From positions 124,001-188,000 of the forward strand of contig NW_027117342.1 of the NCBI RefSeq assembly GCF_038025025.1: a DNA stretch of 64,000 nt, given 5' to 3'. The notes under the pieces are model-generated. The model was given only the letters and a program-made list of their open reading frames with translations, was not told the DNA's origin and made no database searches. Positions 2,999-23,864 of the stretch are shown here, in pieces; position 1 is the first letter of the stretch; each line of letters begins with the position of its first letter. Source of the stretch: Phyllosticta citribraziliensis (taxonomy: Eukaryota). The translations under genes were made by a program, and so were the position numbers.

Positions 2999-3907
2999 CG
3001 AAGCCGAAGCGTGCTCCGTCTTTACAGCTGTGAGGGGGGAGCCAGACGAGAGAGAGATACATCTCATGGGCCCTGGCGTCAACGTGTCAAAGGACATGCT
3101 CCATCCTCTATCGTGACAGGCGCACGCACGGTAATAGACACAGAGGTTGTTGCGGCTGTCGTTGGCATACGGAGCGACGTCGAGCAAAGGCGAAACACGG
3201 TAGGCGTCGTGGCCAATCCAAAGAATCAATCTTGTTCCATCTCTTCCTCTGTCCTCACTGTGCTATCCAAGCACAGCTCATGTACCCTCGACCTCCAACT
3301 GTATTTGTGTATTCCCCTCGGGCTGCGGCAGCATGTTTGACGGACGAGATGGTGGGGTTGGACGGATCGAGCGAAAAGCGACAGCACACGAGGCGGTAGA
3401 TTGCAAGACGCGAGAGACGGGTGGCGTTGCCGGAGGCGCAAGCAAGCGTGGATTCAGGCGCGTTCACAGCTTCTGGTGGGTGTGGAGAGTTGGGATGGAG
3501 ATAGTTGCGAGAGTCGCGTCGAGGGGCGGGGATGATGGGTGGACAGCCGGGGTCGGCCGCGCCGACGCGCCAAACCCAAAGGGGTAAGGTAAGCTCGTCG
3601 CCGGTGGTACCGTCAACACCAACGAACGAGACGATCCAATAATCTTGAATATTCAACAACCCACACCATTGATCATGCGAAGAGACTGGCGCCGACTCTT
3701 TCCGCCTTCGACGCGAAACGCCTCGTGTGGCCTCGTGGGAAGGGATTTCCTGGGGGCAAGCTGGCCGACTGCCTGGTTCCGCACAAGACCCAGCTAGCTA
3801 GGTGCAGCAAACAATGACGCAGCAAACAACGACTCCTTCGCCAGTACCTCCTCCGTTCTTCACGCCAAACCAGATCGTTGCAGATCCATCAACCGCCATC
3901 CTACTCG

Positions 3908-4789
3908 ATGCCTCCCCACGACCAGGCCGCAGCGCCATCACCGCTGCTGCCGCCAGCATGGGCAGATGCTATTTTCACCGACGCTTTCCTCGCAAAGTAT
4001 GCGCGAGACGACGGTGACGGCGCAGACGACGTGGTGGATTTGGCGACTGGCGATCTGGTGCAAGACCACGGGTACCTTGCAGGCATGGAAGATTACCCGG
4101 AGGAGGGGCCGTTCGCCGCTCTGGCTTGGGATGACGCTTGCAGTCAAGATGAAACCCCGCAGGAAAGGATGGACGACACGCTGGAGGCAGAGGAGGGCGA
4201 AGAGGACGACGAGGAGGACGAGGAGAGGATGGACAGTCATGTCGAGGCAGAAGAAGAGGACAAGCACGAGTAAGTTCACCAAGGGTCGATTGTTGTTGAC
4301 ATGCTTCATACTCACTCTTCCGAATCAAGGACAACAACAAATGTGCCGATTCGGCCCGCCATCACGACAACAACCAAGGAAGGCATCGAACCCATCGACG
4401 CCAGCGCCCTGAAATTTGGCAATTGGACCCCCGAGGAGGACGCGAGGATGAAAGAGCTGCGGGACAAGAAGGTGCCGTGGGCAGAGATTGTTCCAGCGCA
4501 CATGCCCGGGCGCACGCTGCAAGCAGCGAGGCAACGATTCTACGACGTCCAGAAGGGTCGCTCGGCCACCGGTGGCGACAGTCAATCATACCGAAGATGG
4601 ACCCAGGCCGAAAAGGACCACCTCCTGGGCCAACGCCGCAAAGGATTCAAGTTCAAAGGCATTGCGGAAGAGCTGGGAGTTTCTGAGGCAATGGCCATTA
4701 CCCAGTACAACCGGCTGGTGAAGAAGCTGAACGATGATGATGATAATGATGATGATGATGAGGAGGACGGAGAGGACGAGCTTGCTTAG
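3908..4789 (+). CDS. Myb/SANT-like two-repeat protein with acidic N- and C-terminal tracts
   Basis: Exon 1 is 3908-4269, the intron is 4270-4329 (GTAAGT...AAG) and exon 2 is 4330-4789; splicing joins the two ORF frames exactly. Myb-type motifs: NWTPEEDARMKELRDKKVPWAEIV..HMPGRTLQAARQRFY and RWTQAEKDHLL..RRKGFKFKGIAEELGVSEAMAITQYNRL. The start codon is tentative. Confidence 0.75.
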
Positions 4790-5034
4790 GTAGTGGCGAG
4801 TCATATGTCTGGGTTAGTCTGCTGATACTACTACATTCAATGACATTGGGCAGATTCACACAAGAAGCTAAAGCACACACAGCGCACGTCAATCTGCATG
4901 AATTCAGTGCTTATCCCCATCTTCGACGGCCGCAAGCCTCCTCTCCTTCCTGTAGAGCTTCCCTCTCCCCTGTCGGTTTGTCTCTATCCAATCAACCAAT
5001 GTATGTTGTGCCGCTGCCGCGGACGGAATTACTG

Positions 5035-5547
5035 TTAATGGGCCTCAAACCGACCGCGGATCCGTCTCGCCAACTGCATGTCAACCTGCTTGATAGTCTG
5101 GCGACGGGCATGCTGGGCGCAGTAATTGGTGTCCTCCATCACACCGACCAGGTACGCCTCGGCCGCCTCCTGCAGCGCTTCCAACGCCTTGACCTGCCAC
5201 CGCGTCACCCCGCTGGCGCCATCCGTCATTGCTTGAGCAATCTCCCGCACCTGGTACCGTGTTGGTCAGTTGTGTGTATGTGTGTGTGGCTGTGTCTGTG
5301 GCATACTGACCAGGCGGGAGAAGGGCAGCTTGCGCAGGCAGAGGTCGGTCGACTTTTGGCATGCTTTGATTTCCCTGATGGCAACGGCACTGGACTTGCG
5401 ACGCCTGACCGGCGGCCGAGGGGTGGGGTCGCCAGCTGCGCGTGCGAACTGTGTGTCAGCAATGTGCAGTGTGTTGGCTGTGGTGTTGTCGGACATACGC
5501 TGTGAGAGGCTTCGTTTCGACGGCTTCCCGAGCTTGGATCGTGCCAT
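5035..5547 (-). CDS. Divergent histone H3 variant, CenH3-like histone fold (150 aa)
   Basis: Exon 1 is 5547-5311, the intron is 5310-5251 (GTCAGT...CTGAC...CAG) and exon 2 is 5250-5035. Spliced fold: [90 protein letters not shown], clearly H3 family. Confidence 0.9.
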
Positions 5548-8500
5548 TTTTGATTGAGTGGATGGAGGATCGAAAGAGGTTGATGAAGGTCCAAGAAACT
5601 AAATATGTAGACAATCGTCGTCGTCGCTCTCGGCCTCAGGCATGGAGCAAACAAGCCGCAGGTGCCAGCCTGTACATGTCGGTAGGTTTGTCGTTTTCTT
5701 CGTCCGTCCATCCATCTGCGTCTACCCTCACTCCCTCACTCCGTGTCACACTTCCTGTGCATTTCCTTGCCACTTCATCTTCTCGCTTGCTTGCGCGTCA
5801 TGCTCGACGCTCACACGGTCGTCGCCCCAGGCCATCATCCTCGACCGAAACGACCATGACGGCCCACCACCACCACCACCACCATACGTCTTCGCTGCCG
5901 CCGCCAGAACTCGCGCACCATCTCGCCGAACTGCAGCGCCTCATCGAGCCCGACAACGCTCGCGTCATCGAAAGTACTGCCCCAACTTCTCAGCCCGACC
6001 AAGAATGCCAAAAGGCGACTCTGGAGTACTGCCACAACCGTCGCACGCCCACACTGCTACGCCTACACCCGGCACACCACAGGAGGTCCGAAGCACTTCA
6101 GGTCCGCTTGGCGCCCGCACGGGTGCCTCGCAGACGAGCATTGCAGACCTCACCTGTCCCCGGCCAAGAAGCATCTGTACGCGCGGTACCCAGCGCCGCA
6201 GGCGCGCCAGGCCTCGTTCGGCTCTCACAATTTCCACACCAGCTCGCAGCCCATGCGGTCTACCTCACGCGGCTTCGGCTCCAGCAGTGCTTGATAGGCA
6301 GGCTTGCCTGTGTCGCATTGTGCCTCTTCTCTTCCTCATTCACGAGTGGATCTCCGGCCCCCCAGAGCTCAGCAATGGCGCCCTGCCAAAACACGCGGAG
6401 CACATCCAACCAAAGAAGATTGGCTCAAAGCACAACACTGCCCCGCAGCTGTCGCCGCTTTCGGTGAAGCTCCCCAAAGTCACCAGCGCCTCCGAGGACG
6501 CCATGTGGCGGCGAGCTGGAGCTACACGCTCGCGCTGTCGCGGCCAACAAGACAAGTGGACGCGGACACAGCAAATACGCTCGCGGCCGCACTCGACGCA
6601 CAGAGCTTCCAGCTCCGACAGACAGAGACGGCTCTCACCAGAGACGCGGGGGTTCAGAGCAGGCGCCTCTGCCAAGTGCTCGAGGCGGTGCTGCAGCAGG
6701 CGTCGGCGGAAATGGACCGCACGGGGCAGAAGACAGACTGGAATTTGAGCATACCCGCCTCGGACCGCCTTTCACAAACCTCCTAGTCGTCGTCGAGACA
6801 TGCATGCATGTTGGACGTGCTAGCAAAACGTTTCTCCGACAAGCTCTCCTCCACTTCCTTCACTGGACACTTCAACACAAACACCAGCACGACCAAGGCC
6901 ATCCCTCGTCGCCATCACTACCATCTCTATCATTGCTTTTTCATCTTCCTCCAGTAGCTGCGGCCGCGTCACGATGCCCTGTCACCCGAGATTGTGTCGA
7001 TGGCTACTTCACGGGGACAGTCTCGCTCCGGCAACCATCGCACCCCTGTCGCACTGTCACGCAGCTTCAGAGAGAAAGATGACACTGGGGAACAAACGAG
7101 ACGGACTGCACAATCAAGTTCAACAACAAGAGGGCGTACAACCTGGAAGTCTCAGTATCATCAGGTGTCGCCAAAGTACGTTGGTTTTCCAGCTGCGCCA
7201 GATTGGCCGCGTTGTGTCGACGGCTTGCAGCGTGGCTCAAGGACCGCAGCGCCTGAAGTTATGGACTTTGTGCTGTCGCCATTTGCGACTGATTGTCACA
7301 GTATCAACGCCGCCTCCTCCTCCTCCTCCTCCTCCTGCCGCCTTTTCTCAATCCATACAGCCTGAAACCCCACGACTCGGTATCGGCCGCCAGCACCACA
7401 TCGATTGAATGGACAGTGGTGGGACAACGTGTCTTGGTCAGGCCTCCGATGGATCTAAAAGCGGTGGATTGGGCGCACAACTGGTGGTGATGATGATGGT
7501 GCAGCCGGGGAATAAGAGAGGCCATGTCCGAGTCCGAGTCTTTGAATTGGCCATGACTGTCCTGGTGGTCAGTCTTCGTGTCCCAATCATGTCTCGCACA
7601 CATCCAGCTCGAAACGCCTGAAACAAATGTTCTATTTGGTCCTCCCCGTCAATGGCATATGCACGTCAAATTCTGGATTTCCCCTCGAGTACCAGCAACC
7701 CGTCCCATTCTCCAATGCTGCTGCTGGTTCCGCCCGCAAATAACCAAAGATCCATCTTGAAACCATGTCCCAATTCATCATTCCAGTACCTCGTGTCCTG
7801 CCTTCCAGACCCATAGACGACATGCCCGGCCATCTTGTGCTCTTTTTAAAGAGCCTCTGACGTGTCTACAAGCTGGAGTTGGTCGTGGCCAGCGACGCTG
7901 GTGTCGAGATTGGCCTTGAAAAGTTTTAGTGCTGTGGTTGGTCAAGACGGGATCGAGTCTGTGGACATTGATCCCTCTTCCGCATTCCGCTCTAGGCAAA
8001 CGGGAGACTTCAACCGCTGGGACTGTCATCTAATCACCACCACCGACGAAGAAATAGCAGCCGCGGCGCACTAGAATCCCTATAGGGATGATGATGGCCC
8101 GCCCACCGGCTCACTACGAAGCTTGTCTTTCCGGCCATGGGCCCACACGAATGCTGCTAAAATCGTTTGCCGTCTCTAGAAGTCGAAGCGCGTGGCTGAC
8201 GATCATCATCACGTCTCCTCGCCTCTCGAAGAAATTGCCTGGCATCTTGATGCCTGCCCGAATCCAAAACGCAGCGCATCATAATTGGACCAAAGACTGC
8301 AGCAAGCAATTCAAAAGCCGTGGCCCACCATCCCTCGGCCTACTGTCGACCAGGACGTGCGCGCTCAGCCCCTAGTTGGTCGTGAAACTCGGCCACAGCC
8401 AAGTAGAGGCCGGAAATCAAGCAGCCGGACGCCACTTTTCTCGACCTGATTCTACAGCTGCTCAAGCGAGCCCTTGAGCGTGATGACGACGCCTAAAAAA

Positions 8501-11500
8501 AAGTACTTTAGCGTCTTCATCTTCCTCGGCATGTGCGCGCGCGCAAGGTTGTCAAGGCTGAGGCTGAGACGAGGCCGAATCCAAAGGTCGACTTCCACAA
8601 AAGGACAACTTCACGAGAGTACAAGAGACTGTCTCATCATGAAGCTCCTAATTGCAGATTCCGCTGTTGCTGGTACGGCCATACAAGGCGCACCGCACTG
8701 ACAAAGGACTTGTTGCCCAAAATCCAGTCGACCAGTACAGTGCGAACACCTGCGCAGCTGGATCAATCAATGAGCGCGTGCAGACCAACGCCAACGTGGA
8801 CTTTCACAGCAAATCCATCGCCATGGTGGGCCGGCCAGGCGGCCGTCGAATTCCGAGCCGGTGCGTCGTTCGTGAGAGTTAGTTGCTGAGGCCGCGTGTG
8901 GCCGCCCGAGGACGACGAGCTTTGGTGCGACTTCGAGTTTGCGCGCGCCGCATTTATGTATCGCGACGGCCCCTTTCCAATTTTTTTTGGCCGACGCGCG
9001 AGTATCAGGCATGATGAGAGCGGTACGGCCATGGCCGGCGGGCCCGGCACGCCAGCCGACGAAGAGTCGTCAGAGGCAGCGTCCGCACTGACGGTCGCCA
9101 TGGCAGCTCGACCACTGCTGCTGCTGCTGGTGTTGATGGCGAGGAGTATGACGGCCCCATCGGTGGCGTCATGCAAGTCGAGCCCTGCCTGCTACTTAGC
9201 AGACTGACTGACTGACCTTTTGCTGCCAGGCCCGCCACGCTCGCTCAATCCGCGCTTGTCTTCGTATGACCGGGAAGAGAGTTACGGAAGATGATGCCTC
9301 CCGCGCCTGGCCTCGCTCCGGCCATAAACGCCGCGACTATGGAGCGGGAAGAGGAAATTCACCCGCAGCTGGTTGCCGAGTATGATAAAAGGGGGGAGGG
9401 GGGACGCGAAGCAGCTGCGCGCACGAGCACCTCACGCGCTTTGCCAGGAAGCTCGATCGAGTCTTAGCCACGAGCCTCCAGACGGCAGCGCGGGCTCAAC
9501 GGCACTTGGTGACTGTTGTGCACAGAAGAGTCGGGCAATCAGTGGGAGATGGGGGGTGGAGGAGGAGGAACAAGGGCTATGGATGAATATCAAATGAAAA
9601 AGCCCAGCCCGTGGCTCAAATCAAAGCATCACCACCACTACATAGAGAAAATATAATGAATTACGGCGGCACTGACGGACATCACCGCAGTACTCGACCG
9701 CGTTTCCGGTGCCCCAAGGAGGTCTTCACTGGCCCTGCAGATAATAATGGCGATGCCATCAAAGAGCTAGAACCGCTTGTCAAGCAAGACGTCGAGAGGG
9801 AGCCTGAGGATACCACCGCAGCGATCAAGATGAAGTCCAGCAAACCTGACAACAATCCAGCTCCCATGCCAAACGGAAGCCAGTAGACCCCTGGGCTGAT
9901 TATTTTGGAAATAGAGCGAAGCAAGGCTCTGAAAGTGATAATGACATTGATGTTAGGTTGGAGGACTCTAGCAATAGCAATATCAGCATCAACAGTGCGC
10001 CAGGGTCGTCCCGACTTCGTCGGCAACGCGCCTGACAGCGCCGCCGCCTCATCTCTCAAACACGGTGGCTGCTGGGAACAACGGCCGGATCGTCCCATGA
10101 GCAGGATTTGGTCAGAATAACAAGCCATGTGCACTTGTCAGCCCCCAGAACTGTGTCATCCACCTCTGTCAACCATTTTTTTCGCACCAACATGCCAAGC
10201 CGATGGTCCTGGTGCTCTCTTAACATCTCCCACGCTTCTCGTCAACCGCCGCACGCCTCTCTCGGCCTCGTTCAGTGTCTGACGGGTGCTACCATCTGCC
10301 GCCACAGCACTGTCCCCTCCTCTGCCGGGGAAACGCGCCCTCGCTTCCTTGTCGTCATCTTGTGTAGCACGCGCAACAGACTTGGAGGGAAGGCAGGCAT
10401 GCAGTTTCCATCGGGATATCATAGCCTTGTGAGTATGAGCATAAGCAGTAGACGCATGATGGTCATGCGCGAGCTCGTAGCGCGCGCATGGCGTCAGGTG
10501 GTAGTCCAAATCATAAGGGCTTCCAGATCGAGACCGCTGTTGGCCGAGAAGGCCTGCTATTTGTAGCCGTGTTTGGGGTGACTGGGAGCCTGATGGCGCT
10601 GACGACGGCATTTGATGATGGGCTCGCTATGCCCTTGTGTCGGCAGCGTGGGTGGAGGTGGTTGTTGGTGTGGAGGTGGAGGAGCGTTCGATGGCGGCGC
10701 GGCGGCCGTTGACGACCTCGCGAGCCCCGGGCGACGTGTGCGAGAGCGCCACGCTGGCGATGGCAGTAGCAGCAGCGGCGATACCACGCGGCCGCGCTTT
10801 GCGAACAGCGCCGTTGGCATCGTGCCATGACCTCGATGGCGTGCCCCTATGAGCACCACACCTGGAGAGGGGAGCTTCGGCGGGAAGCATACCTGGGCAG
10901 CCGGAGAATGAAGTTGGGCCGGACATGCAAAGAGAACTTGAAGGGGAGGTGTACCTAGAGCTGACCTGTCCGGCGATTCCAATAGACCGTCGGCGGCTTT
11001 TGCGGCGGTGCTTTACGTCTTGCGCATTCAGCGCCCCAAGTCCCCAGTGGTCGGGAATTGTGCGGTGGAGCCGATAGCAGCGTTGAGGCGTTTGAGCAGG
11101 CGCTGGGTGGCGCGGAGCAGAGAGAGTACGGCGGGACCGGAGACATTGGAGGACTTGGCGAGACTTGAGGGTGGTGGGTCGTGAATTGAAAGTGAGAGGG
11201 ATGAAGTTCGAGTCGTCAAGCGTCCAGGAATGCGCCCGCCGGCGGGGCCTGATGGACTGACGGTGACGTTGTCTGACCTGATCAGGACCACCCTGCCGTA
11301 GATGGGACTCCCCTCGTCTACTCCACTGCATGGCAGGGAGTCGAATGATTTGCGTCTCTAGCTAGACCAGCTCCTCGGTCGCCGCCGCGTCCAGAGTCTC
11401 CTGGCAACGATGCGGTTGGATGCGGTAGCGACATTGGGCGGATTTTGCGTCGGTCAGGAGCCGCAGGTTGGCCCACAAGGCCGCGGCGTCCGAAGCACCA

Positions 11501-12145
11501 AAGACGTGCCACGCTGGGGCGATGTTGTCGACAAACGCGTTTTCCTCGTTTGGATCATGGAACCTTGGTGGGTAGTCGATCCTCGACAGTTGTTTCCGGC
11601 GGGGACGAGCGGGCAAGATGAAGCCGCCGCAGCCAAGGCCGGCACGATCTAGAAGACGGTTGGAAGTTGTTCACGTCGTTCTTCTGGCCAACATTAGTAT
11701 CCAGCAGCAGCAGGAGCAGGGACGAGACGAACAGAGGAGAGGAGAGGTAAGCGCCAGATGAGAAGGTTGAGAGGCTCGGCGGTGGTTGAGGAGCATCTCT
11801 TCTCGTTGTCGGCAGCCACCGAGAGGCAGATGTTTGTCGGTATTGGCTGAGAAAGGCAAGATGGATGGGTCGAGCGGGTCGAAGGCGACGAGGCGGGGGA
11901 GACGGAGGGAGTGACGAGCTGGCGACCTGGGCTTTCCTCCTCTTCCTCTTCCTCTTCTTCTTCTTCTTCCTCCTCTCCTCTTCTTCCTCCATCATCAATC
12001 ACAACATCCGCTGACGCTCTTCTTTCATCGCATCCACCTCACCATCACTTGTCTGATTCTACCGGTACGCCAAAGCACAACGGCTACTCCTACAACCCAC
12101 GACATGGTGCAGCAACGAGAACAAGCACCCTCACCCGCTGGGTGC

Positions 12146-12240
12146 GTTCGATGGAGTCGACGGCCGCAATGTTCAGATTCTTCGCCTCGCCCGTTCCATG
12201 GGGTCGACGGCCGCAATGTTCAGATTCTTTACTTCGCCCG
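12146..12240 (+). repeat. 47-bp tandem duplication
   Basis: GTCGACGGCCGCAATGTTCAGATTCTT is identical at 12156 and 12203, with similar flanks. Confidence 0.85.
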
Positions 12241-15147
12241 CCTAGCCCACCTCGCCCGAGCGCGACACCAACGCTCAGGCCGCCCAAACAGACCTTATCA
12301 AGCGCCCATAATCGCCTCAACTCTAGCTCACCTACGCGCAAAAGCTGGAAGAAACCGTCGCTGTACTACGCGCCGACTTCTCCTCCCAAAAAATGCACTA
12401 CGAAAACCTTCTCTCGTCGACGACGGCCTCGTCGCAAACCAAACTTACCGAAACGCGACTCCAACGCGCCGGCCCAGCAAACAGAGCTCATCGAGCGCCC
12501 ATCGTCGCCTCGACTCCAGCTCACATACGCGCAAAACTTGACGAGCACACCGTCTCCTGTCCGCAGATTGCTCCTCCCACTTTCTGGCGTCTCGAAGGTT
12601 GAACAGACTGGAATCCGCCGTCCGTGTGTGCTGCCCGGGCGGGCTACTTCGACAGCGAACGCAGAGCCGACGAAGGCGGCGCGAGGTACCCATCAGTCAA
12701 ATCTGGCCTCAAACCCGTCCCGCGAGAGCAATAACAGCATCCGACGTCGAAGCACGCTTGGAGAAAACATGCTCGGGCTCAGGAGTACGAGGTTGATGAG
12801 CTGCCGCCGCCGTCGAGACGATCACGTCCATCCACAGCAAACACGCCTCAAGTACAGTACGAGGAAACCCACAGCAGCCCTTTCACTCAGGACAATCCAT
12901 TTCAGAGTCCCCGACGCGTCTGGCCGCCACTTCTCCACAGGATTATGGGTCGTCAGCAAGTGGGGGAGGAGTTGGGGGTGGTGTCATGGATTTACGGCCA
13001 GCCCCGCTGAATGCCACGCACCTATGTATTCAATCAATCAGCACTGTACCCACAGATCCAAATATTTGCTCAACTTGGCCCCATGCATATGCGTCTCCAT
13101 GTTCTCTCGTCCTGTCTCGAAGTTTTCACGCCGTTCATGTCCTGGTAGCATAGCAGAGGTCAATCTCTAAGGCGTAGGATGAGAGCCTCTGATTCAGCTC
13201 CAGTTCAGGACGCGACCACAGCTCTGATTCTTAAGAAAGATGCATGCCGGCACGAATGTGGAAAACCAAAGTGTAAGAGCCAGGAATGTGGCAACCACAT
13301 TGCGCATGAATCTCGCCTGTGCGGTCACAAACGTGTTGCGCGTATGGAGTGCGAGCTGAGGCATGGCCATCGTGGTCACCGCATCCATCACCATATATTG
13401 GGTTTTGATACGGTCGAGAAGCACCAACCACCCGATGGAAGGAATGGTGCTTGACGAGCGAGGCAGTCATCGACAGGCTCCGCACCATGGCCAATATATG
13501 GGATGCGCGGCTCGACAGCATCAGAGGACCGAGTCGACACCAGGCGTCGCACGTGGAAACAGTGGAAGGAGGTTAAGGATAGTTTGCAGCAACTGAAGCA
13601 AGATGTCAGTCACAAGGTGATGAAAGGACGGACCAACTGGAGGAGTAGGAGCTGAAGGATACATTCGAGCAGGCGTACATCGAGTTTGAATAACAGCCCA
13701 GCGGGTAGCTAGCGCAAAACTCCCTTGGTTTGGTAATGTGTCTCCTACCTCTTTCAGTCCCACAGCTGCGAGATTTACAACCTTGTCTCAAGATTGCATC
13801 CTTATAAGGGGTTTGCAAGCACCTCTGTTTATAGACATGCTTTGGCGGTAGTAGGAGTATGGGGGGCCGAAGTGAGAAGTGAACTCTAAAAAGATGAGGG
13901 CGGTGAGTAAAGGATAGCAGATGATGGGAGGTAGGAGCACGGCGGCGGACGAAGGCAGCAGGATCATTTCACACAGTACTTGAACAGCGGCAATGTCCAG
14001 TGACGTCTCAAGTAGGTCGTTGGCGTAGGCTGGTTCAGGAAAGTTTTTAATGCCCGGACTCCAAACACAGAATCCTATGCAGTCGTCTTGATTAGCAAGA
14101 ATGGCTGAGAAATTGGAGATGGCGACGCACTCGTCTGATAGCTTGGGATAGCTGTAGAGTGGTTGAGATGAAGGTGAGTAGAGTTGAGATGGAGGTAAGG
14201 TTAACAAGAGTGGGAGTGCAGGAAGACCAATTTTCTTCCCGGTGTCGCCAACGCTAATCCAACAGAATCACAACCGCCTTATAAATTCTTCTCTCATCTT
14301 CTTTACGCCCGCCGTTGCTGTTGCTCTTCTCCTTCTTGTCTCATCGCATCTTGGCCCACCAACGTGTAAACGGCCAAAGCCAAGGTCACCTCACGTACCA
14401 TTCTCTGCATCAGTCCTACTTGGACACTTATAGCCTGTCGATGCCGGGTAGTGGATGGTGTAAGGGCTCGTCTCCAGGGGACAAGATGAAGAAAATGTCC
14501 GCGGGAACGGGGGCGAGCCTCGCTCGCTGCTTCGCTCTGGAATGAGTCGCGGTGCCTGGAGCGACTTCAGAGGAGAAAGGCTGACGAGTGGTCGCTGTGG
14601 TTTTGTGGAGAACAGGCGCGCGGTGACTCTGGTGGCGCCGCTTGGCCGCTGTAATCCAAGCTGACCCGTTGACACCAATGAGGGCGCGCCGAATGTCAAC
14701 GACACACTCCGTGAGCTCTTATAGAAAGAGGGAAAGCCTTCAGCCACCAGAAACCCTGAGTGAGGCGAGGATAAGCTGTAGAATTTGAAGCTGGGGCGAA
14801 GCACACAAATAGACCCGAAAATGAAGGCAGACAGACCCAAGAGCCTGGCCATGGAATGAAGCCCCAAGTCGCGACGAATCTGAGCGGTCCACGTGTATAC
14901 TGCAAGCGATCAAGATCTCAATGAGGAGGAGGAGGAGGACCCCACAAGCCAACCGATTCGGTGCCCAAGTTGCCGCATCCGATATTCTTGGTGTGTCATC
15001 CTACGCTATTAGCGAAGTCCAGAATGTATATCCTGAAGAGAAAATGCTGTGATATCCTCCTAGATGTCATTTATTTCTTATATTAGGTAGGCTATCAGGC
15101 TTGACATCTTGAGCGTGGTGCTGTGTTGTTGAAGCAGCGCACGCGTC

Positions 15148-15184
15148 GAGGGCTCGGTGGAGGGCTCAGTGGAGGGCTCGGTGG
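15148..15184 (+). repeat. 12-bp tandem repeat x3
   Basis: GAGGGCTCGGTG GAGGGCTCAGTG GAGGGCTCGGTG. Confidence 0.85.
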
Positions 15185-15419
15185 TTGTAGCCTGTTGATT
15201 GGTGGCATCGCTTGCCAGGGTACTGTGGACTCAGGAGAGTCAATTTTGGAGCAATTAGGAGCGCGTCGTTAGGAGGAAAAGAAGTTGGAGTTGAAAGCAT
15301 TACGAAGGCGAGTCGCGCATGCGGACGTCTGGTATAGACAAGACCTGGCCCAACGTGCTGTCCAAGATGCCCAGTTGCTCGTGGGCTCCCCAGGACGTGT
15401 TAAGTAGTGGCCGGTGAAT

Positions 15420-16012
15420 CTCGCTAGCGGGAATGGCAATCTCGCCAGCGGGAATCATACTCGCTAGCGGGTGACTCAGCCACTCGCTAGCGGGAATCAT
15501 ACTCGCCGGCGAGTATGGCTTTCTCGCTCACGTGACCGGCATACTCGCCGGCGGGAATGGCATACTCGCCAGCAGGTGACTCAGCTGCTCACTCACGTGA
15601 CCGGCATACTCGCCAGCGGAAACCATACTCGCCAGCGGGTGACTCAGCCACTTGCTCACGTGACCGGCATACTCGCCAGCGGGTGACTCAGCCACTCACT
15701 AGCGGGAATCATACTCGCCGGCGAGTATGGCTTTCTCGCTCACGTGACCGGCATACTCGCCGGCGAGTATGGCTTCCTCACTCACGTGACCGGCATACTC
15801 GCCGGCGAGTATGGCTTCCTCGCTCACGTGACCAGCATACTCGCCGGCGAGTATGGCTTCCTCGCTCACGTGACCAGCTCTCTCGCCAGCGGGATTCATA
15901 CTCGCTAGCGGGAATGGCCTCCCCACCAGCAAGAAAGAAGGTGATTACTAAGAGGGCCATTCCCGCCAGCGAGTATGATTCCCGCCAGCGAGTTGCCTTT
16001 CCCGCCAGCGAC
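15420..16012. repeat. Phased array of ~21-bp monomers built on the quasi-palindrome CYCGCNNGCGRG, with a 42-bp higher-order unit and an inverted terminal cluster
   Basis: About 17 forward-type copies lie between 15420 and 15912, and 3 inverted-context copies at 15962, 15981 and 16001. The perfect 20-bp palindrome CATACTCGCCGGCGAGTATG occurs at 15498, 15710, 15752, 15794 and 15836. Confidence 0.95.
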
Positions 16013-16199
16013 AAGGCGCGCAATTTGCCTCGACTTGACACCCAACAGCAAGATGGACAGCCCTGAAGCGCTCCAAGTCCCCCTCAGCGACAGTTCTACA
16101 CTGTGAGCAACCATATAATTCAACCCAAATGATGCTTGCTTACACCATGTGCTACTCCTAGTCACCCTTGCCAACCTCGCCCCCGTCCACAATATGCTC

Positions 16200-16295
16200 G
16201 CCGTCCTCTCCCGCATATCGCGCGTCGCCCTCCCCCGCACATCGCGCGTCGCCCTCTCCCGCAGAACGCGACCCGTCCTCTCCCGCAGAACGCAC
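16200..16295 (+). repeat. 24-bp tandem repeat x4 (degenerate)
   Basis: Unit approximately CGYCCTCTCCCGCASAWCGCGCGT repeated four times. Confidence 0.75.
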
Positions 16296-16776
16296 CCCTC
16301 CACACCTGCAAAAGCGCCAGCACAACCTTGGCCCCGTCTCAATTCCGATAGTTGAAGACACAACTCCAGTGAGCGGCACCGGCAGCAACAAGGACCGCGA
16401 GTGAAGCAAGCGTGGAGGACACAAGACGCGATGATGCCGAAACCTTGCTCGGAGACGTCGACTGGACCTTTGACCGAGCTCCGGACGAAACAATTCAGGA
16501 TTTGAACGAGGGAATCGACCTATCCAATCCGTTTGTTATGATCGAGCGCCCCAGGAAACGGAAGCGCGACTCTGAAATGGAGCAAGAGCGTATGACGGCC
16601 GACGGGCAGACAGCGACCGAAGAATCTCGCGCTCCTCCCATGAACGAGACCGACAAGGCCATGGAGCAGCTCAGTGGGTGCTATCAGGTCGGACAAAGCG
16701 TAATCTACCTTATTTGGGGCGCCTTTGCCTTGAACGATATGCGCATCATAGAACTCGCCAAGAATCCACCTTAGCC

Positions 16777-16810
16777 TTGGGCGTCTTGGGCATCTTGGGC
16801 ATCTTGGGCG
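16777..16810 (+). repeat. 9-bp tandem repeat x4
   Basis: TTGGGCGTC TTGGGCATC TTGGGCATC TTGGGCG. Confidence 0.75.
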
Positions 16811-18325
16811 AAGGACCGCCATCGCGACGGACCCGTTCAATGCCATGTCGGCAGCCGTTGACGCCGCCCGCGGGCGTCGCGGTCCAAGACGCTGAGGCCA
16901 CGCATGCCAAGTTGAAGGGTAAACCAGAGCCCGCGATCGCTTCTTGCGCCGGATGACTTGTGTGCGACGACGGCGCGTCATGATAAGGGCGCCGCCGCCT
17001 TTGTGATAGGATTGAAGAGTTTCTCAAGTGGGGCATGGTCGGGACTTGATATTTGCTCGTACTTCCGCCGGTGACGAAACGCAGCCGGGCAAGCGTCCGC
17101 ACCAGCAGACGTCGCCAGAGAAGCACGCCTTCCTCGCCCTCTCTTCATTCAAGGCCGGTCACCACACTGGTATAGGTCGACAAGTTGAATCACCCTCCGT
17201 TTCCGTCTTCGCCCCACATCCGATCGTTCTAGTTCCTCCAAGCTGCTCGAAATGTACGCCTCCCTTGCCCTGTTTTCATTCAAAGCTAGACACCATCTCA
17301 CACGCTGACAGGTCGAGTTCGTGTACTGGGACGTTTCGACAGCACCACTTGGATCAATAAGGCCATCCTCTTCGCCCTTTGTCTACTCCGCCCTTGACCT
17401 GCTATCCCCGGAATCCACCAATTTCACTTGTTCGCAGCGGTCGGCGGCCACTGATCAACCCATTGCGCGCGCTGATGGCCGCCCAGCCAATTGCTGCGGT
17501 ACTGCGCGTGGAGCTCATCACGTCGACGAGGGCGTCGCTAATTGGAGAGGAGAGTCTAATGACAACAAGAGCAGAGACTACGACCTGGAGCAACCTCAGG
17601 ACCAAAACTCGTCCACGCCGGATGCGGACCACACGTCAACACTGACTGCATATCCGCCGAATGTGATTCACGGATCCCACCAGCTCACCCGAAGCACGCA
17701 GTTCTTGCGCCTCAAATTGTGAAGAAGGAGACGGCCACTTTTCAACATTATAGCGCCCACTCAAAGTTGAGTCCTCCGCCGCCAGCCCAGACACCGACAT
17801 CGACACCTCCAAGACTACGTTTTCCGCGCGAGTTGAAGCAGCGTCTAGCGGTCAATTCAGCCAAAGACATGTCGGGAGTGCGATGCGCATCCGGCGCCCT
17901 TGTTCGCCGTCCCATGCGTTGTGTCATCCGCGCCCAGCCTCGAGCAAGAATGCACGCCGACCTTCGCGTCGAACAGCTGTGCTGTCCTCAATGCAGGAGC
18001 ATCTTTTTCACCATCAACCGTACATTATTCTCAGGGAAGTTGGCGATATTCTCCTTGTCCAACCCCGCGTCACCAGTCAACTTGGGAAGCCTACCACCTG
18101 TGCTGAGTGCGTGGGTTTTCCCCTGTATGTACCTGCTAGGTCTGCAAGAGGGCTAGAAACATGGACCGCCGCTGAGTGGGAAGCAGCTCTGGTCATTGGG
18201 CAGCTTGGCGCTGACTAGGGCACGTCATCCGCCATTGCTTCGGGATCTGCACTGGCTGGGGAGTTTCATGGCCGGGGCGTTCAAGCAGTTGGGAATCGGT
18301 TCCTCGCAACGGCGGCATGCCATCC

Positions 18326-19086
18326 TCAGGACGACTGCCAGAGCCAGCAGACCCACTCAAAAGTCGGCTACTTCTCGACCATCCTCGGGCTCGCCACCGC
18401 GTCCTTGCCCACGGCGGAAATCGCGCCGTTCTTCATCTTTACGTACTTCACCACCTGCGCCGCCAGGACCATGCTCCCAAGCACGACTAGAGCGTCCCTC
18501 CCTTCGGAATTCTCCTCCATCTCCGCCGGCAACTCCATCGTCGACACAAAGACTTCGTCCTAGTCGGTGCGCATGAATACCTTCGACACGTACCTTGTGG
18601 TCGGGTCCGCAACCTTGGACAGGATCTTGCTCGTCATCCTCTCATACAACACCAGCGCGAACTTGACTTAGGCCTTCATCAGCAACTTCTTGTCGGTCAT
18701 GAGCATGGACAGAGTGCCGTGCGTGCCGCACACCAACAAGCCGTTGAAGTATTCCTGCGGGGCGGTCGCCGAGCAAAAGACAAGCCCAGCGAGGAAGGAG
18801 CAGGTTGTACTGCGTGTGGCAGTAGGCGTCTGTGGTCTCGCCGCAGGAGAACTCACTGCCAATTGGTGCTAGGTTCACAAATGTTTCGTCCTTATTGATG
18901 CTGGAAGGGGCGTCCGGGTCTGGCAGCGTCGCCGAGGACCTCTCGGGTCCGTTGGAGAATTTGCCCTTGATCGCGATCAAGCGCTTCTCCACCGATGACC
19001 TTGTCCATGGCCTCAATGTCGCGCTCGTTCGCGGTCGCGCCTGGGTCAACGCCCATGACGTCGATTCTCTCGGCGGAACCTTTCAT
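18326..19086 (-). pseudogene. Decayed coding sequence of unknown family
   Basis: One minus-strand frame reads as plausible protein through three in-frame TAA/TAG stops (18668, 18560, 18368): ...LMTDKKLLMKA*VKFALVLYERMTSKILSKVADPTTRYVSKVFMRTD*DEVFVSTMELPAEMEE...LAAQVVKYVKMKNGAISAVGKDAVASPRMVEK*PTFEWVCWLW. Frameshifted protein-like segments continue upstream. Confidence 0.5.
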
Positions 19087-21074
19087 GTTCGTGTTCTTAC
19101 TGTCGCTGTCGTCGTTGAAATTACTTCACGTGGCCCTTCACCGTCGCATCTGACATCTCCTTCTGCACTTCTAGGCGCGTTGCCATGGAACCTTCCTTCG
19201 AATTTCTGTCTAACCACCTACCCGGCGACCTAGAGGCTCTGCCTAGACGCCGTAGACAAGAAACTCTTCCGGTTCCTGCTTCTCTCCCTCGTTGAAGACA
19301 CGCTCCCAGTCGCCTGCACACGTGCAGGTGACCAGCGTGCTTCTTCAACTACGCACTGAATGCTTGCTGATGGGTGGTACGTGGTGATGGTGGACGCCGA
19401 TGTCCTGCCACCACCGCGTCTTCATCCCCCATGATGCTGGCTTTGAGCAGGTTGAACTGAACGCCTGCCATCTCCTGGCATTGCCGTATGCGTGGACAGA
19501 ATGGAGTCGTCAAGGTTGCGTTCTGTCTCAGGCCTGGTGCTGAGGCGCACCGCATTCAAACGATGCAAAGGAGCAACGGTGAAGTGAGATGGCGAGGGAG
19601 GGCGGTCTGCTGGTGAGCATGTTGCGAGAAGGTGGGTAGTAAGAAGGCCGCCTACGCCACACAAGACGTCAAAGCTGAGTGTCCACGTTATTCTCCTGGA
19701 GCGCATCAAGCGTCGGCGGCGTTTTCAAAAATGTCTTGATTGACAGGGCCGCGGCGCACTAAAGTCCTTGGTTGGCTCTTGAAATTACTGGAAAAAGAAC
19801 AGCAAAGCCTCCGTCCTCCACGGGTATTGCCTGGCAGGGGCGCTTAACAACAGCCGATGCGGTGTCGAGCAACCCAGTTGAATCTGAGCACAGGCCCTCT
19901 TTGATTCCCGACCATTTATCCCCCAAAGCATATAACCCCAGTATCTGCAACGTCTCCAGTGGCACAGTCACCCAGCAGCGAAACCGCGCTCCATGGATCC
20001 ACATGGGACGCTGACCTCACGGTTCACTCTCATTTCGGGGAAGGGCGAGCTGTCGTTCGGTTCAGCGGCACAGGCCCTGGTGCTTGGAGCTAAGCCGTCA
20101 GTGGTGCTTCTTCGCGCGCGGCGATAGCAGCAGCGCATAGCTCAGGGTGTGCGCGACAGGAGACACGCCATTAGACGCCTGGCGCTTTCTGTTGCTTCCT
20201 GCTGAAAAGAAAGCCGATGCCGCAGACCAAGAGCCTGGCGGTGTCGCGCTGGACGGAATCGCCCAGTACAGCCAGTGCTTTTTCGACAAGCGCGTTTTTG
20301 ACTTGAATTGAAAAGCAGGTGGAGTAGTGTCGTACATTGAAGGCTGAGACTTTGGGCCCTGACCACCGTTGACGTTTCCATTGGTGGCATTGCCGCTCTG
20401 TCCAGGAGATCCATTGACATCGGGTGAAGGGCCGTCTTTTTGTAGCTCCATTGCTTGATGCCGTGTCGCTGATTGCACTGCTGGGGCGAGACACCAAGGC
20501 TAAGGCGGGAGCAGGCGGGACATTTGCCGCTTGTTGGTTTTCCCTTTCCCTTCTCAGTTGCTATTTGTGTCGGCCTGCCCTCCTCTGGAAACGATTGCCA
20601 CGATTCTGTCGACAACGTCGTTGGAATTCCGCAAGCCCAGGTTTGTTTCTCATGTCGCCGCGTTGAGCCACCGGGGAAACCAGACAGGCTGGATGAACGA
20701 CCGACGGGAACCGTGGTGGTGGATGGGAGGCAGTCGATTTCGAGGTGGTGTAGACGTTGTCCTCGTCAGACTCGTCGTGCTTGGGTGGAAAGGCATGCGA
20801 GGTCGAATTGAGGGAGACGGAGGAGGTGGGAATCGGCGACGCGCTTGAGTGAGTGAGGTCAGATTCCGGATGAAATGGTAGAGGAGCCGGGGGAGCCAGT
20901 TACCGTCCCACTGCACAAGGTAGGCGTCAAATTGGTTATTAAGAATACGGACAAAGGGAGTTTTGGGAGTGGTTACGCTTGCGCTTGAGTGTGGCCGAGG
21001 AGATTGGGATAGGCTGGCTGGTTGTTAAGGTGCGCCATGGTGATGATGACGGATGTAGGTGGTGGTGGTCAAAA

Positions 21075-21229
21075 GCCGCTGGCGAGAAAGCCATTCCCGC
21101 TAGCGACATCCATTCCCGCCAGCGAGTTTGATTCCCGCCGGCGGCATTCATCCATTCTCGCCAGCGAGTATGCCCATTCCCGCCAGCGAGTATGATTCCC
21201 GCCGGCGGCAATTGGATAGTCCACGTGAC
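21075..21229. repeat. Second cluster (7 copies) of the CYCGCNNGCGRG motif, inverted relative to the main 15.4-kb array
   Basis: Copies at about 21075, 21096, 21115, 21134, 21157, 21179 and 21198. The string CATTCCCGCCAGCGAGTATGATTCCCGCC is shared with 15958-15987. CACGTGAC follows at 21222. Confidence 0.9.
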
Positions 21230-21247
21230 TGCCCAGCGGCTCAGGTT

Positions 21248-21303
21248 CTCCTCCTCCTCCTCCTCCTCCTCCTCCTCCTCCTCCTCCTCCTCCTCCTCCT
21301 CCT
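21248..21303 (+). repeat. (CTC)n microsatellite, ~18 units
   Basis: Uninterrupted CTC/CCT run. Confidence 0.95.
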
Positions 21304-22730
21304 ACTCCTACTACACCCTCCTCATCTCGGCAAACTGTCTCCTCGCCGCTCGTTGCTCGCCGCTCTCGCCATCTATCACACCGTTCGCTCGCCGTCTCCG
21401 ACGATTGCTCAGGGAATGCCCTACGTCTATGGGACGTATTCCTCCCACGCTTCTGCTACCCTGCCCTCTCACCGTCGCCGTCGCGTTGTTTTTGCTGATA
21501 CGCGCATGCAGTGGTTTTCCTCTCACCTTCACTGTCACCATCTACACACCGCCGCCCAACACCAGACTCAAGCCTTTCGATCGGGCACGGCTCTCTTGCC
21601 TGAGACGATCACGATGATTACGCGCCTGCAACTCCGCGTCGCCTTACCCATCACCGAAACCAGCACAGGTTCGTCCCGTCCACTCCGCGCACCACAGACC
21701 ACGCCCGCGAGAACCCATGGGGCCTGCCACCTGTTCCACCGAGGAACGTGCGGTCAACATCCCAGCGGTCGACTCCTACATCCAAGGCGCCCCTCCACGC
21801 AGCAGACCACTCCCTCGACGACGCACGCGATCTGGCATCGGTTTCGGTTCCCGTCGGGAAAGGGTGAAATTTCCAGCGCTCAAATTTCTCATCAGCACAT
21901 GGGGTGAGCACTACGTCTCGGCCCAGGAAAGCTACAAGCAGAACCTCGGCGAAGTTGGCGCCACCATATTTCAAAAACTTGATGCTCATTGCTTTTTTGA
22001 TACAACGCTGCAACGGTCTGCTTTCTTTGCATTTCCAGCGGGGTTGGCAAGCCTCTGCAAAAGGAGAAGGCTGAGATAATTCTGCAATTGGAGAGACAAT
22101 CGACGTCTCCATGGTGGCCAAACTTTGGAGCGGCGTTGCATCCCTGTTTTTCATGTCGCATAGAGAGTGGAAGCACCCATCGCTCGCTCAAGTCGCGGAA
22201 CGTGCAACAAACAGGTGGTTAGCTGCAGGCAGTGCGGCTGACTCGGCCACAGGGTAGAAATGTGCTGGTGTTTTGTTGCCACTTTACCAGCGCCCATTGA
22301 CAGCGCCGCCCCCACCGGCCCATTCACAACTCACTACCCTCTCGCCCGGTAACTGATGCTGCACCACTCCACTCCCATCCACCCTATTTTCGGTCTACAT
22401 GAGCTTGCCAGATTTGATCTCACGAGGCACACTGTCATCATGCAAAGCCACAACCCCCGCCCGGACACTGTTTGAGCATCCGGAGGTGCTGCGCAAAGAG
22501 CCGCAGCGCGGGCCCTGCATTTTGACCCAATATACGCGCTGCGGTGCTCAAGGTCACCTCTTGCACTCTCATCGTTTGCCACGTGGGTTCAGGCAGGCAG
22601 GTCCGGTGGGTGCTGCTTCCCGTCATCCTGCTCAGCTGCGGGGGGACTTCCCAGAGGAGAAGGCGGCACCCACCACTTGCGCACAATGACCTCTATATAT
22701 TTCCCTCGTCGCCCACTGGGCTCGCTTGCG

Positions 22731-22860
22731 GGACCTCAAGGCGCGCGAGCGCAGGACCTCAAGGCGCGCGAGCGCAGGACCTCAAGGTGAGCAGAGTAGT
22801 AGGACCTCAAGGTGAGCAGAGTAGTAGGACCTCAAGGTGAGCAGAGCAGTAGGACCTCAT
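22731..22860 (+). repeat. Minisatellite: six GGACCTCA(AGG) cores with two linker types
   Basis: Cores at 22731, 22754, 22777, 22802, 22827 and 22852 (periods 23, 23, 25, 25, 25). Confidence 0.9.
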
Positions 22861-23257
22861 CCTTCCCAACGATCGTGAGGAAATTGCATTCATTGGAAAC
22901 AAGTGTAAAGAAGATTGACTTTGCATACAGAACCTTTTCCCTTCGCCCCTTGAATCAACCATCTTTTTTGACTTCATCTGTCTTCATCGAGGCCCACGTG
23001 TCCATTTCCGTGGCGACATTCTCAAGACGAATCCACGAAAGCACAAAATCAGCTCGGATAGATAGCTCCACGACCTTAGGCATCATATTGAGTGTCGCCC
23101 TATGAGAGCATCGTCTTGTCCACCTCCTCGACCATGGAACCAGCAGTGTTGCAGCAGTGGTGGACATTGTTGCGGCGTTGCAATTGACTTTCGAGATTAT
23201 TTTCGAATCGGCAAGCGGAAGGAAGAGAAGAGCGGCGGTGACCTCTAGGATCTCGAT

Positions 23258-23864
23258 TCAGCACTTCCAACAGCGGCTGCCAGCCATTTGTCGACGGGGA
23301 GCCGTGAAAGGAGGGCTGTCGAGATAACGTAGAAGGACAAGATTAAGGCCGCCGGCGACTACCCACATGGCCAAGGTCTTGAACGAGATGGACCCGGCAA
23401 AAGAGCTGATCACGATGGCCATCGCGCGCGCGCTGCTGAGTTGTGGCATCTTTACATCCTTCTTCATGCACAGCTCCCAAATCATGCACCCGTTCTCCAT
23501 CGCAGGCATGCGCGGTCCGTCGCAGCCGTATTCAAAGTAGTCCGCGGAGCACTTGATCTTCTTGGCCAGCGCGTCGATTGCGACTTGGAATTCTGCCAGC
23601 TTGATGTCGTCTCTAACGGCCCTGCAGAGGCAGAAGGCCGTGGCGACGAAGCATGCTAGCTGGAGAAAGCTGATGATGATTGACGCGTAGAAGGCCAGTA
23701 TCCATGGAAGTTCTGGATCTGCTTTGGCGTACGACGAAAGCCCGCGTCGAGCCGAGTCTTGCAGCTGCTCTTGCCGTGCAGTATGGACTTGGTGTTGATC
23801 TAGCACGCGTTCATTATCTGTTCGCTGGTAATGATGCGATGCACTTACTGGTGTTCAAAGGCAT
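23258..23864 (-). CDS. Short, divergent Brr6/Brl1-family nuclear-envelope protein (four-cysteine lumenal domain between two hydrophobic segments)
   Basis: IIISFLQL..(TM)..AVRDDI...KIKCSADYFEYGCDGPRMPAMENGCMIWELCMKKD...ARAMAIVISSFAGSISFKTL matches the Brr6/Brl1 pattern YLQ..D..C...Y..N.C...R.PA....C..WE.CM..D...A...A....F...IS.KT. Tentative 16-nt first exon at 23864-23849 with a GTAAGT...TAG intron at 23848-23800. Confidence 0.75.

Follow-up and report, generated by a model that had tools for sequence, protein, structure and literature searches.

Fungi usually carry single, essential genes for CenH3 and for its loader. What, then, is a strongly divergent CenH3-like histone gene doing beside a gene for a Myb-repeat protein in the citrus-associated filamentous ascomycete Phyllosticta citribraziliensis? 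Both genes lie near one end of a 64,000-nucleotide stretch of its genome (contig NW_027117342.1, positions 124,001–188,000; hereafter the window, numbered from its first base), which is fungal DNA with a G+C of ~0.56. An initial annotation, made from the sequence alone, had joined the histone, the tandem Myb/SANT protein, a Brr6/Brl1-domain protein and a ~21-bp-phased palindromic array into a possible selfish or accessory segregation module, and had held independent duplicates piling up in a dead region to be an equally open explanation. We put the probability at about 0.6 that the two neighbours are an adjacent, expressed pair consisting of an extra, fast-evolving CenH3-derived histone and a dedicated chaperone of the Scm3/HJURP family.

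An Scm3-family gene and a CenH3-type histone gene lie tail to tail

We scanned the left part of the window with Pfam, using 268 stop-to-stop open reading frames (ORFs) of at least 60 amino acids that start before position 25000. To the left of a conserved IML1 gene, matches above the curated cut-offs fell on three genes only, the Myb-bearing gene, the histone gene and the Brr6-like gene. The claim that these are the only recognisable genes there is thus borne out.

The Myb-bearing gene, here called Scm3-Myb (3908–4789, plus strand), has two exons, 3908–4269 and 4330–4789 (stop included), and encodes 273 amino acids; its spliced translation equals NCBI protein P0127 of P. citribraziliensis letter for letter. 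The initial annotation had described a tandem Myb/SANT protein. The Myb repeats were confirmed on the ORF at 4274–4786 (plus strand; Myb_DNA-binding, 28.2 bits, and Myb_DNA-bind_6, 25.5 bits), but an N-terminal Scm3/HJURP CenH3-chaperone domain had been overlooked. Pfam Scm3 (PF10384) matches the first-exon ORF (3818–4270, plus strand) with 32.9 bits and the full protein with 30.7 bits, against a cut-off of 24.3. The protein consists of the Scm3/HJURP domain at residues 27–62, an acidic linker, and Myb repeats at residues 151–193 and 211–265. Because it belongs to the Scm3-family CenH3 chaperones, the chromosome-segregation theme of the locus is stronger than the initial annotation knew. Public annotation, which is hereby corrected, labels the gene merely ‘Myb-like domain-containing’ or ‘hypothetical’, and the model of one assembly (P0004, 166 amino acids, ‘hypothetical protein’) starts at an internal methionine and lacks the part with the Scm3 exon. 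A phmmer comparison of P0127 with the PDB matched Myb domains only and no Scm3/HJURP chain, and an Atlas structure search with the N-terminal 120 residues gave no usable match (TM 0.23–0.32 throughout).

Tail to tail with Scm3-Myb, and separated from it by 248 bp, lies the histone gene (5038–5547, minus strand). It has three exons (5499–5547, 5309–5435 and 5038–5248) and two introns, and its 129-amino-acid translation is identical to NCBI protein P0006, letter for letter. Pfam Histone matches the last exon with 66.8 bits (ORF 5038–5265, minus strand), with a weaker piece in the frame at 5269–5598 (minus strand). The closest PDB match is the fission-yeast (Schizosaccharomyces pombe) CenH3 Cnp1 at 123.9 bits, whereas H3 chains reach at most 104.6 bits; the CenH3-like gene of the initial annotation is therefore real and of the CenH3 lineage. 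Fungal CenH3 proteins are recognised by a loop 1 longer than that of H3, a tryptophan in R-W-Q, and the absence of the glutamine found in helix alpha-1 of H3 (PF-Q-RLV). In our alignment the window histone keeps the QPGDPTPR motif, the long loop 1 and RWQ; it reads PFSRLV where H3 has PFQRLV, and its loop-1/RWQ segment spans 15 residues, compared with AQDFKTDLRFQ in H3.

The histone is a divergent extra copy

A conserved CenH3 of 156 amino acids is present in the genus, represented by P0126 (P. citricarpa, 9 contigs) and P0109 (P. capitalensis, 5 contigs). Identity in the histone fold is 95% between these two, and 80–84% between the conserved Phyllosticta CenH3 and its counterparts in Elsinoe, Aspergillus and Hypoxylon. 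The fold of the window histone is only 62–63% identical to the conserved Phyllosticta protein, and 57–63% identical across the Phyllosticta, Elsinoe, Aspergillus and Hypoxylon CenH3s.

With the ordinary CenH3 of the Pezizomycotina (CSE-4/hH3v; P0126 and P0109) the window histone shares an H3-type fold, QPGDPTPR before alpha-N, the long loop 1, and RWQ in place of RFQ. It differs from that protein in its N-terminal tail, which is short at ~33 amino acids, in having RRKSSA for RYKPGT, and in a differing 15-residue segment that substitutes for LCAIHAKRVTIMQKD. Several positions in alpha-N, alpha-2 and alpha-3 that are invariant in other Pezizomycotina CenH3s are changed. At the C-terminus the window histone ends in RIRGRFEAH, and the conserved RIRGAWGGLG tail is missing. 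An ending of the form G(A/V)WG(G/D)LG occurs in 11 of the 14 other fungal CenH3s aligned; exceptions are P0101 (RIRGD) and Neolecta, Magnusiomyces and P0103 (other endings). Since the GAWGGLG ending is lost and the alpha-N, alpha-2 and alpha-3 positions are altered, the window histone is probably no standard kinetochore platform.

The divergence is extreme. In a maximum-likelihood tree the terminal branch of the window histone measures 3.78 changes per column, about 47 times the median of 0.081. The histone groups (support 90/88) with P0101, another divergent CenH3-like protein of P. citribraziliensis, which has 136 amino acids; the two share a 598,952-bp contig and are 84 accession numbers apart. 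The accession of a conserved CenH3, KAK7536540, falls between two blocks of P. citribraziliensis accessions that hold window genes, and in UniProt it is numbered next to the window histone; because of this numbering, we infer that P. citribraziliensis keeps the conserved CenH3 too. The species would then have at least two, and probably three, CenH3-type genes. With P0101 in the species and the 156-residue CenH3 in the genus, the window histone is not the sole CenH3-type histone, and its sequence identities, its tail and its tree branch all mark it as a divergent extra copy rather than the ordinary CenH3 of the genus, as the initial annotation had supposed.

P. citribraziliensis has several Scm3-domain loci

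We searched 1.84 billion representative proteins with the Scm3-Myb protein using HMMER and obtained 357 matches at E ≤ 0.001, nearly all of them through the Myb part. Among the best 150 matches, 122 proteins were scanned for domains. Myb was present in 119, and as Scm3 did not figure among the 25 commonest families, at most three of these 122 carry it. Pfam scans of 16 proteins placed an Scm3 domain in three, all from P. citribraziliensis: the window protein P0127, P0238 and P0130. P0238 (235 amino acids, on another contig) combines Scm3 and Myb and is 32% identical to the window protein. P0130 is a mis-modelled protein of 562 amino acids on a third contig, whose residues 471–524 are 92.6% identical to window residues 4–57. 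P. citribraziliensis has at least three Scm3-domain loci.

The window protein resembles the CenH3-specific chaperones of fungi (Scm3) and animals (HJURP) in its N-terminal Scm3 domain, which scores above the gathering threshold, and in the C-terminal position of its DNA-binding modules. It departs from them in being small (273 amino acids) and one of at least three such loci, and its Myb repeats resemble a large multi-Myb fungal family more than anything specific to Scm3. In 2007 Aravind and colleagues reportedly described Myb domains, zinc fingers and AT-hooks in fungal Scm3 proteins, and the size and tails of Scm3 are said, in the same work, to vary greatly among fungi.

Outside the species, a Myb protein of P. 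citrichinensis (179 amino acids) is 46–50% identical to the window protein over the Myb part; its model lacks the Scm3 exon and is possibly truncated, like P0004. This protein and own-species records were the only close relatives found for the three window genes, which are lineage-restricted, in keeping with the reading of the initial annotation.

These results bear on a second explanation, by which only the histone is extra and Scm3-Myb is the ordinary, fast-evolving Scm3 of the lineage, serving both the conserved CenH3 and the variant. The relative in P. citrichinensis makes the gene lineage older than the species, no long Scm3 was recovered in our searches, and the reported variation in Scm3 size and tails would suit it. 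We nevertheless regard this explanation as quite improbable, given a second protein with both Scm3 and Myb, the near-identical copy of the Scm3 exon in P0130 and a P. citrichinensis model without that exon, though one that is perhaps truncated.

The genes are expressed and the histone appears to be under constraint

We compared four sequencing runs with positions 3880–23870 of the window. Run X1 comes from the same organism (0.86 of sampled words). Runs X1 and X3 were taken as RNA-derived solely on their intron-like joints, and uncovered bins of X3 and X6 were disregarded. Run X4, from a sister (organism B), covers all 30 bins with roughly 85–95% likeness to the window; because it retains the Scm3 intron (record 14, 4006–4641), we take it to be DNA of a close relative.

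Splice joints of all three recognisable genes are present in X1. For Scm3-Myb the joint is 4269>4330 (GT..AG), which X3 also contains; for the histone gene the joints are 5248>5309 and 5435>5499, and for the Brr6-like gene 23799>23849 (all CT..AC, on the minus strand). All three gene models correspond to annotated proteins (P0127, P0006 and P0128), and their frames are intact. A codon-usage log-odds model trained on 10 window genes discriminated genes poorly, and GC periodicity was used in its place. By this measure the codon periodicity over the three genes is 0.24–0.33, as high as in IML1.

The listed differences between X4 and the window within the histone coding sequence number five, four of them synonymous third-position changes and one a Ser>Thr replacement; 3 contigs encode the same histone protein. 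A ratio of four synonymous differences in five, though a small sample, suggests that purifying selection is at work, not decay. The initial annotation had named silence, neutral evolution and sole orthology as findings that would speak against it. None of the three holds for the histone, for which we found spliced transcripts in X1, mostly synonymous differences and further CenH3 genes.

A second contig of X1 differs from the window at 5140, 5143, 10195–10291, 12310–12394 and 20320, mostly sharing the letters of the X4 sister. Expressed close paralogues of parts of this region, including the last exon of the histone gene, probably exist elsewhere.

A probable dedicated chaperone for an extra histone

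The Scm3-like protein is most likely the dedicated chaperone of the neighbouring histone, to which it would bind. The Scm3 domain would hold the dimer of the variant and H4, and the Myb repeats would bring the chaperone to DNA, targeting deposition. Histone and chaperone would together form a second, specialised deposition route, and the variant may work in chromatin outside the kinetochore or at some specific stage. It seems unlikely that two cognate gene types would come to lie 248 bp apart by chance.

Several points weigh against this reading. The conserved CenH3 of P. citribraziliensis is argued from accession arithmetic and not from its genome sequence. The RNA label of run X1 is a guess, its RNA status being argued from intron-sized GT..AG joints. 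The 4:1 count is made on the five best-supported differences, with 1692 further differences over 20 kb lying outside it, and a paralogue, not the orthologue, could be the source of the X4 contigs. No long canonical-looking Scm3 was recovered in searches limited by protein length and word sharing, and the window gene might itself be the working Scm3 of the lineage.

The Brr6-like gene looks like a minimal copy

The third recognisable gene (23258–23864, minus strand) has exons 23849–23864 and 23258–23799 (stop included) and encodes 185 amino acids, identical letter for letter to NCBI protein P0128. Pfam Brr6_like_C_C matches both the ORF at 23261–23854 and the protein with 67.8–68 bits against a cut-off of 25; with a score so far above the cut-off and the splice joint in X1, the Brr6/Brl1-domain gene of the initial annotation is real. 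Like the Brr6/Brl1 nuclear-envelope proteins of fungi, P0128 has a four-cysteine domain between two hydrophobic segments. It differs from them in its minimal form and in having no relative from another species among proteins of 108–347 amino acids, where 99 candidates yielded its own-species record only. The gene looks like a lineage-restricted minimal copy, the third lineage-restricted copy in a gene-poor, duplication-prone and pervasively transcribed compartment. We found no tie of this gene, or of the array described below, to the histone–chaperone pair.

The palindromic array reads as a foldback minisatellite

The ~21-bp-phased palindromic array with seven sites also proved to be real. The main array (15414–16012) comprises ~27 units of 19–23 bp, each starting CTCGC, and Tandem Repeats Finder reports periods of 21, 42 and 63. 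Its units contain TCACGTGA (seven copies), TGACTCA (four of the seven in the window) or the perfect palindrome ATACTCGCCGGCGAGTAT. All seven copies of TCACGTGA in the 64-kb window lie within 15528–15873, at spacings of 65, 63, 84, 42, 42 and 42 bp; seven copies arose in none of 100 shuffles (mean 1.23). As the sites belong to the copies of a tandem repeat, this count reflects duplication and not seven independent events.

The unit core CTCGCYRGCGRG, with at most one mismatch, has 49 matches on both strands, compared with 3.73 expected. About 19 copies run forward at 15420–15912, three are inverted at 15962–16012 and about five are inverted at 21075–21190. Because its last three units (15951–16012) are inverted, the main array folds back on itself: its ends, 15421–15471 and 15962–16011, are 88% complementary over 51 nt, and the single-strand fold (621 nt) is one hairpin of −191.4 kcal/mol (z −21.5). 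The second cluster (21076–21211) has ~7 inverted copies of the CTCGC unit followed by one CACGTGAC, and folds with a z of −3.95. Overall the units are distributed in three clusters. A (CTC)20 microsatellite at 21248–21309 stands just past the second cluster.

In its size (~600 bp), complementary ends (~50 bp, 88%), units of 19–23 bp and single long hairpin, as well as in a further short copy 5 kb from the main array, the array is like foldback repeats and MITE-like elements whose inverted ends consist of short tandem units. No target-site duplication is visible at its ends (15414 and 16012), and the window holds one further short cluster. Self-comparison over 1–25 kb showed no other mutual similarity among the flanks of the three clusters, and the array unit had 0 matches in metagenome contigs. 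We also considered the clusters as three paralogous units, or as parts of one 5.8-kb element with a recognisable interior, and dropped both ideas, the cluster flanks being dissimilar. A role of the arrays as promoters of three transcripts was likewise dropped: RNA contigs end at the arrays or cross them, those that end merely break at repeats, and record 11 of X3 traverses the 21.1-kb cluster.

The initial annotation had likened the sites to CDEI (RTCACRTG, the Cbf1 site of budding yeast) and to iterons. Each TCACGTGA does fit RTCACRTG on the minus strand, and the array sites are phased repeats, as plasmid iterons are. CDEI occurs once per point centromere, a 125-bp element that also holds CDEII and CDEIII, and this budding-yeast logic is inapplicable to filamentous ascomycetes. 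Here the sites are minisatellite copies, TCACGTGA is a generic bHLH E-box, there is no CDEI–CDEII–CDEIII unit, and no initiator or partition gene was detected among the 268 ORFs and a further 111 from 27–64 kb. From its sequence we read the array as a foldback minisatellite multiplying generic bHLH (E-box) and bZIP (AP-1-type) palindromes. The array may be regulatory; nothing supports a role like that of a centromere or an iteron. The genes were said to surround the array, and it does lie between them, but loosely, with ~10 kb separating it from the histone gene and 7.3 kb from the Brr6-like one.

Could the histone, the Myb-bearing loader, the Brr6-like protein and the array nevertheless be a private partition or drive system, with the Myb repeats binding the array as an iteron? 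Three lineage-restricted extra copies of nuclear-division genes lie inside 20 kb, histone and chaperone are tightly linked, as co-adapted drive components may often be, the array is unusual, strongly structured and in three clusters, and expressed close copies of parts of the region occur elsewhere. Yet the locus sits on an ordinary chromosome arm beside core genes (IML1, an Esa1-type MYST acetyltransferase and RNase H2 subunit C), and the ORF scans revealed no gene for a transposase, a recombinase or a partition-type protein. The array is 7–10 kb from the genes, its sites are generic bHLH and bZIP palindromes, its cluster flanks lack other similarity, and binding of the array by the Myb repeats is purely conjectural. 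A selfish or accessory segregation module as initially proposed is thus unsupported, no connection of its array or Brr6-like gene with the pair having been found, and we consider it very improbable.

A variant of the pair hypothesis would make histone and chaperone a self-contained deposition system, in which the Myb repeats aim the tail-less histone at DNA (possibly the CTCGC arrays). The system would operate in genetic conflict, as a driver marking the chromosome that carries it or as a suppressor of kinetochore spreading, and the Brr6-like protein would belong to the same adaptation. This variant, too, is a long shot.

The interval between the genes is transcribed and gene-poor

The gene-poor interval between the histone and Brr6-like genes (5600–23200) is transcribed and spliced and contains no recognisable protein domain. 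X1 contigs cover 30 of the 30 bins of 3880–23870. Intron-like X1 joints occur in plus sense at 5680>5830, 9172>9230, 16102>16162, 17253>17312 and 22809>22929, and in minus sense at 13592>13679 and 14073>14130; the X1 contigs are collinear on 5830–9172 and 17312–20195, stretches without a long ORF. Open frames of at least 150 amino acids number 24, compared with 13.0 ± 3.0 in block-wise dinucleotide shuffles, and the longest, of 439 amino acids, was reached in 1 of 200 shuffles. Five of ten ATG-initiated ORFs tried are annotated proteins, which differ between assemblies. No Pfam match above cut-off was found within the ORFs of the interval.

Codon periodicity is low throughout the interval except in a frame at 18371–18865 (minus strand), where it reaches 0.47, the strongest of 1–30 kb. 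This frame has two in-frame stops (TAA and TAG), the kind of change that C-to-T mutation makes, and is probably a relic of a protein gene. It gave no Pfam match above cut-off, only a sub-threshold DUF7931 (13.3 bits), and no PDB match. The description of the interval as decayed or dead therefore holds in part: low codon periodicity and the lack of recognisable coding content fit it, but transcription, splicing, the excess of ORFs and the annotation of half of those tried do not.

Loose ends in several runs indicate that three fragments, 12707–12908, 20336–20439 and 7057–7203, are shared with transcripts of other loci. The first of these (200 bp) has high depth; X1 and X3 show loose ends at both of its borders, and X4 at one of them (12908). 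Its sequence also belongs to a strongly expressed transcript of another locus, and six-frame translation of it yielded nothing recognisable. A short contig of run X6 (12711–12890) lies on the same fragment. Tandem duplications are found in or near long open frames at 12145–12240 (two 47-bp copies) and 12261–12343/12454–12536 (two 83-bp copies, 83% identity), as well as farther right at 41880–42113 (two 117-bp copies). A 25-bp tandem repeat of 5.3 copies occupies 22731–22859, and its copy number is variable, since X1 lacks 23 of its bases.

Such a setting suits the proposal that unrelated, recent duplicates are decaying in a fast-evolving, gene-poor compartment, functionless and transcribed only because the whole region is. 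Pervasive transcription, the broken protein-like frame, the three fragments shared with other loci and the variation of annotated ORFs between assemblies all accord with it, as do the expressed look-alikes of region fragments elsewhere. It fits less well with three intact frames whose introns are correctly removed and whose codon periodicity equals that of IML1, with a histone protein unchanged on 3 contigs, or with sister-organism differences that are mostly synonymous. A random pile-up would not predict the adjacency of a histone and its cognate type of chaperone, and leaves their 248-bp spacing unexplained. Duplicates piling up thus describe the surroundings well, but as an account of the pair we judge this unlikely.

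Gene content of the rest of the window

The unrecognisable stretch ends at the IML1/SEACIT subunit gene (24700–26961, minus strand; Pfam IML1, 388 bits on the ORF at 24703–27003), the first ordinary conserved gene to the right. Beyond it, we scanned the 111 ORFs of at least 110 amino acids from 27–64 kb. They include genes for an aldo/keto reductase, an NLR-like NACHT/TPR protein, an MFS transporter, a P450, the MYST acetyltransferase (Esa1-type), an exonuclease, a CMAS-type methyltransferase, RNase H2 subunit C, an EF-hand protein and a HET-domain protein. The NLR-like gene (31694–37501, minus strand) combines an NPHP3_N/AAA NTPase with TPR repeats in two long ORFs, and the HET-domain gene lies at 62600–64000 (plus strand); both are typical fungal non-self-recognition genes. 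Across the 268 and 111 ORFs, Pfam detected no transposase, recombinase, mobile-element, partition-type or initiator gene, and neither Rfam at gathering thresholds nor a tRNA scan had a match in the window.

Run X6, labelled organism C, contains short, low-depth contigs identical to the window at 4180–4379, 9680–10061, 10431–10581, 12711–12890, 14534–14698 and 20741–20998, which suggests that the fungus or its DNA was in that sample. The 273-residue Scm3-Myb protein has two RefSeq and two GenBank accessions, ~7,000 numbers apart and with the local gene order reversed, and the histone and Brr6-like proteins follow the same pattern of duplicate accessions. Either the species has been assembled twice, or the entire 20-kb block occurs twice in one genome.

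Comparison with known systems and implications

The nearest parallel that we found is in insects. In mosquitoes and Drosophila, according to Kursel, Welsh and Malik 2020 (PMC7306699), paralogues of the CenH3 Cid and of its chaperone CAL1 are co-retained. Likewise, P. citribraziliensis has multiple genes for CenH3 and for CenH3 chaperones in one genome. The insect study describes paralogues under different constraints and proposes specialisation as the reason for their retention (PMC7306699). The present case differs in its chaperone, which is of the Scm3/HJURP type and not CAL1, in the adjacency of the copies and in its host, a filamentous ascomycete.

Our literature searches turned up CenH3 paralogues for insects, for nematodes and for plants, as well as for a green alga, and none for fungi. 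For Aspergillus, the accessible part of a survey reports CenH3 in all species surveyed and mentions no duplicate (PMC5307856). What is new here is the fungal setting, a chaperone of the Scm3 family, and the physical linkage of histone and chaperone genes.

Explanations for the fast evolution of centromere proteins, such as centromere drive and intralocus conflict, have mostly been put to the test on animals and plants with asymmetric meiosis. If the proposed pairing is true, P. citribraziliensis would offer a haploid, tractable fungal system in which to ask what a second CenH3 pathway does. It would also be a system for the co-evolution of histone and chaperone as a linked pair, and for the dispensability of the C-terminal tail of CenH3 in a non-kinetochore role.

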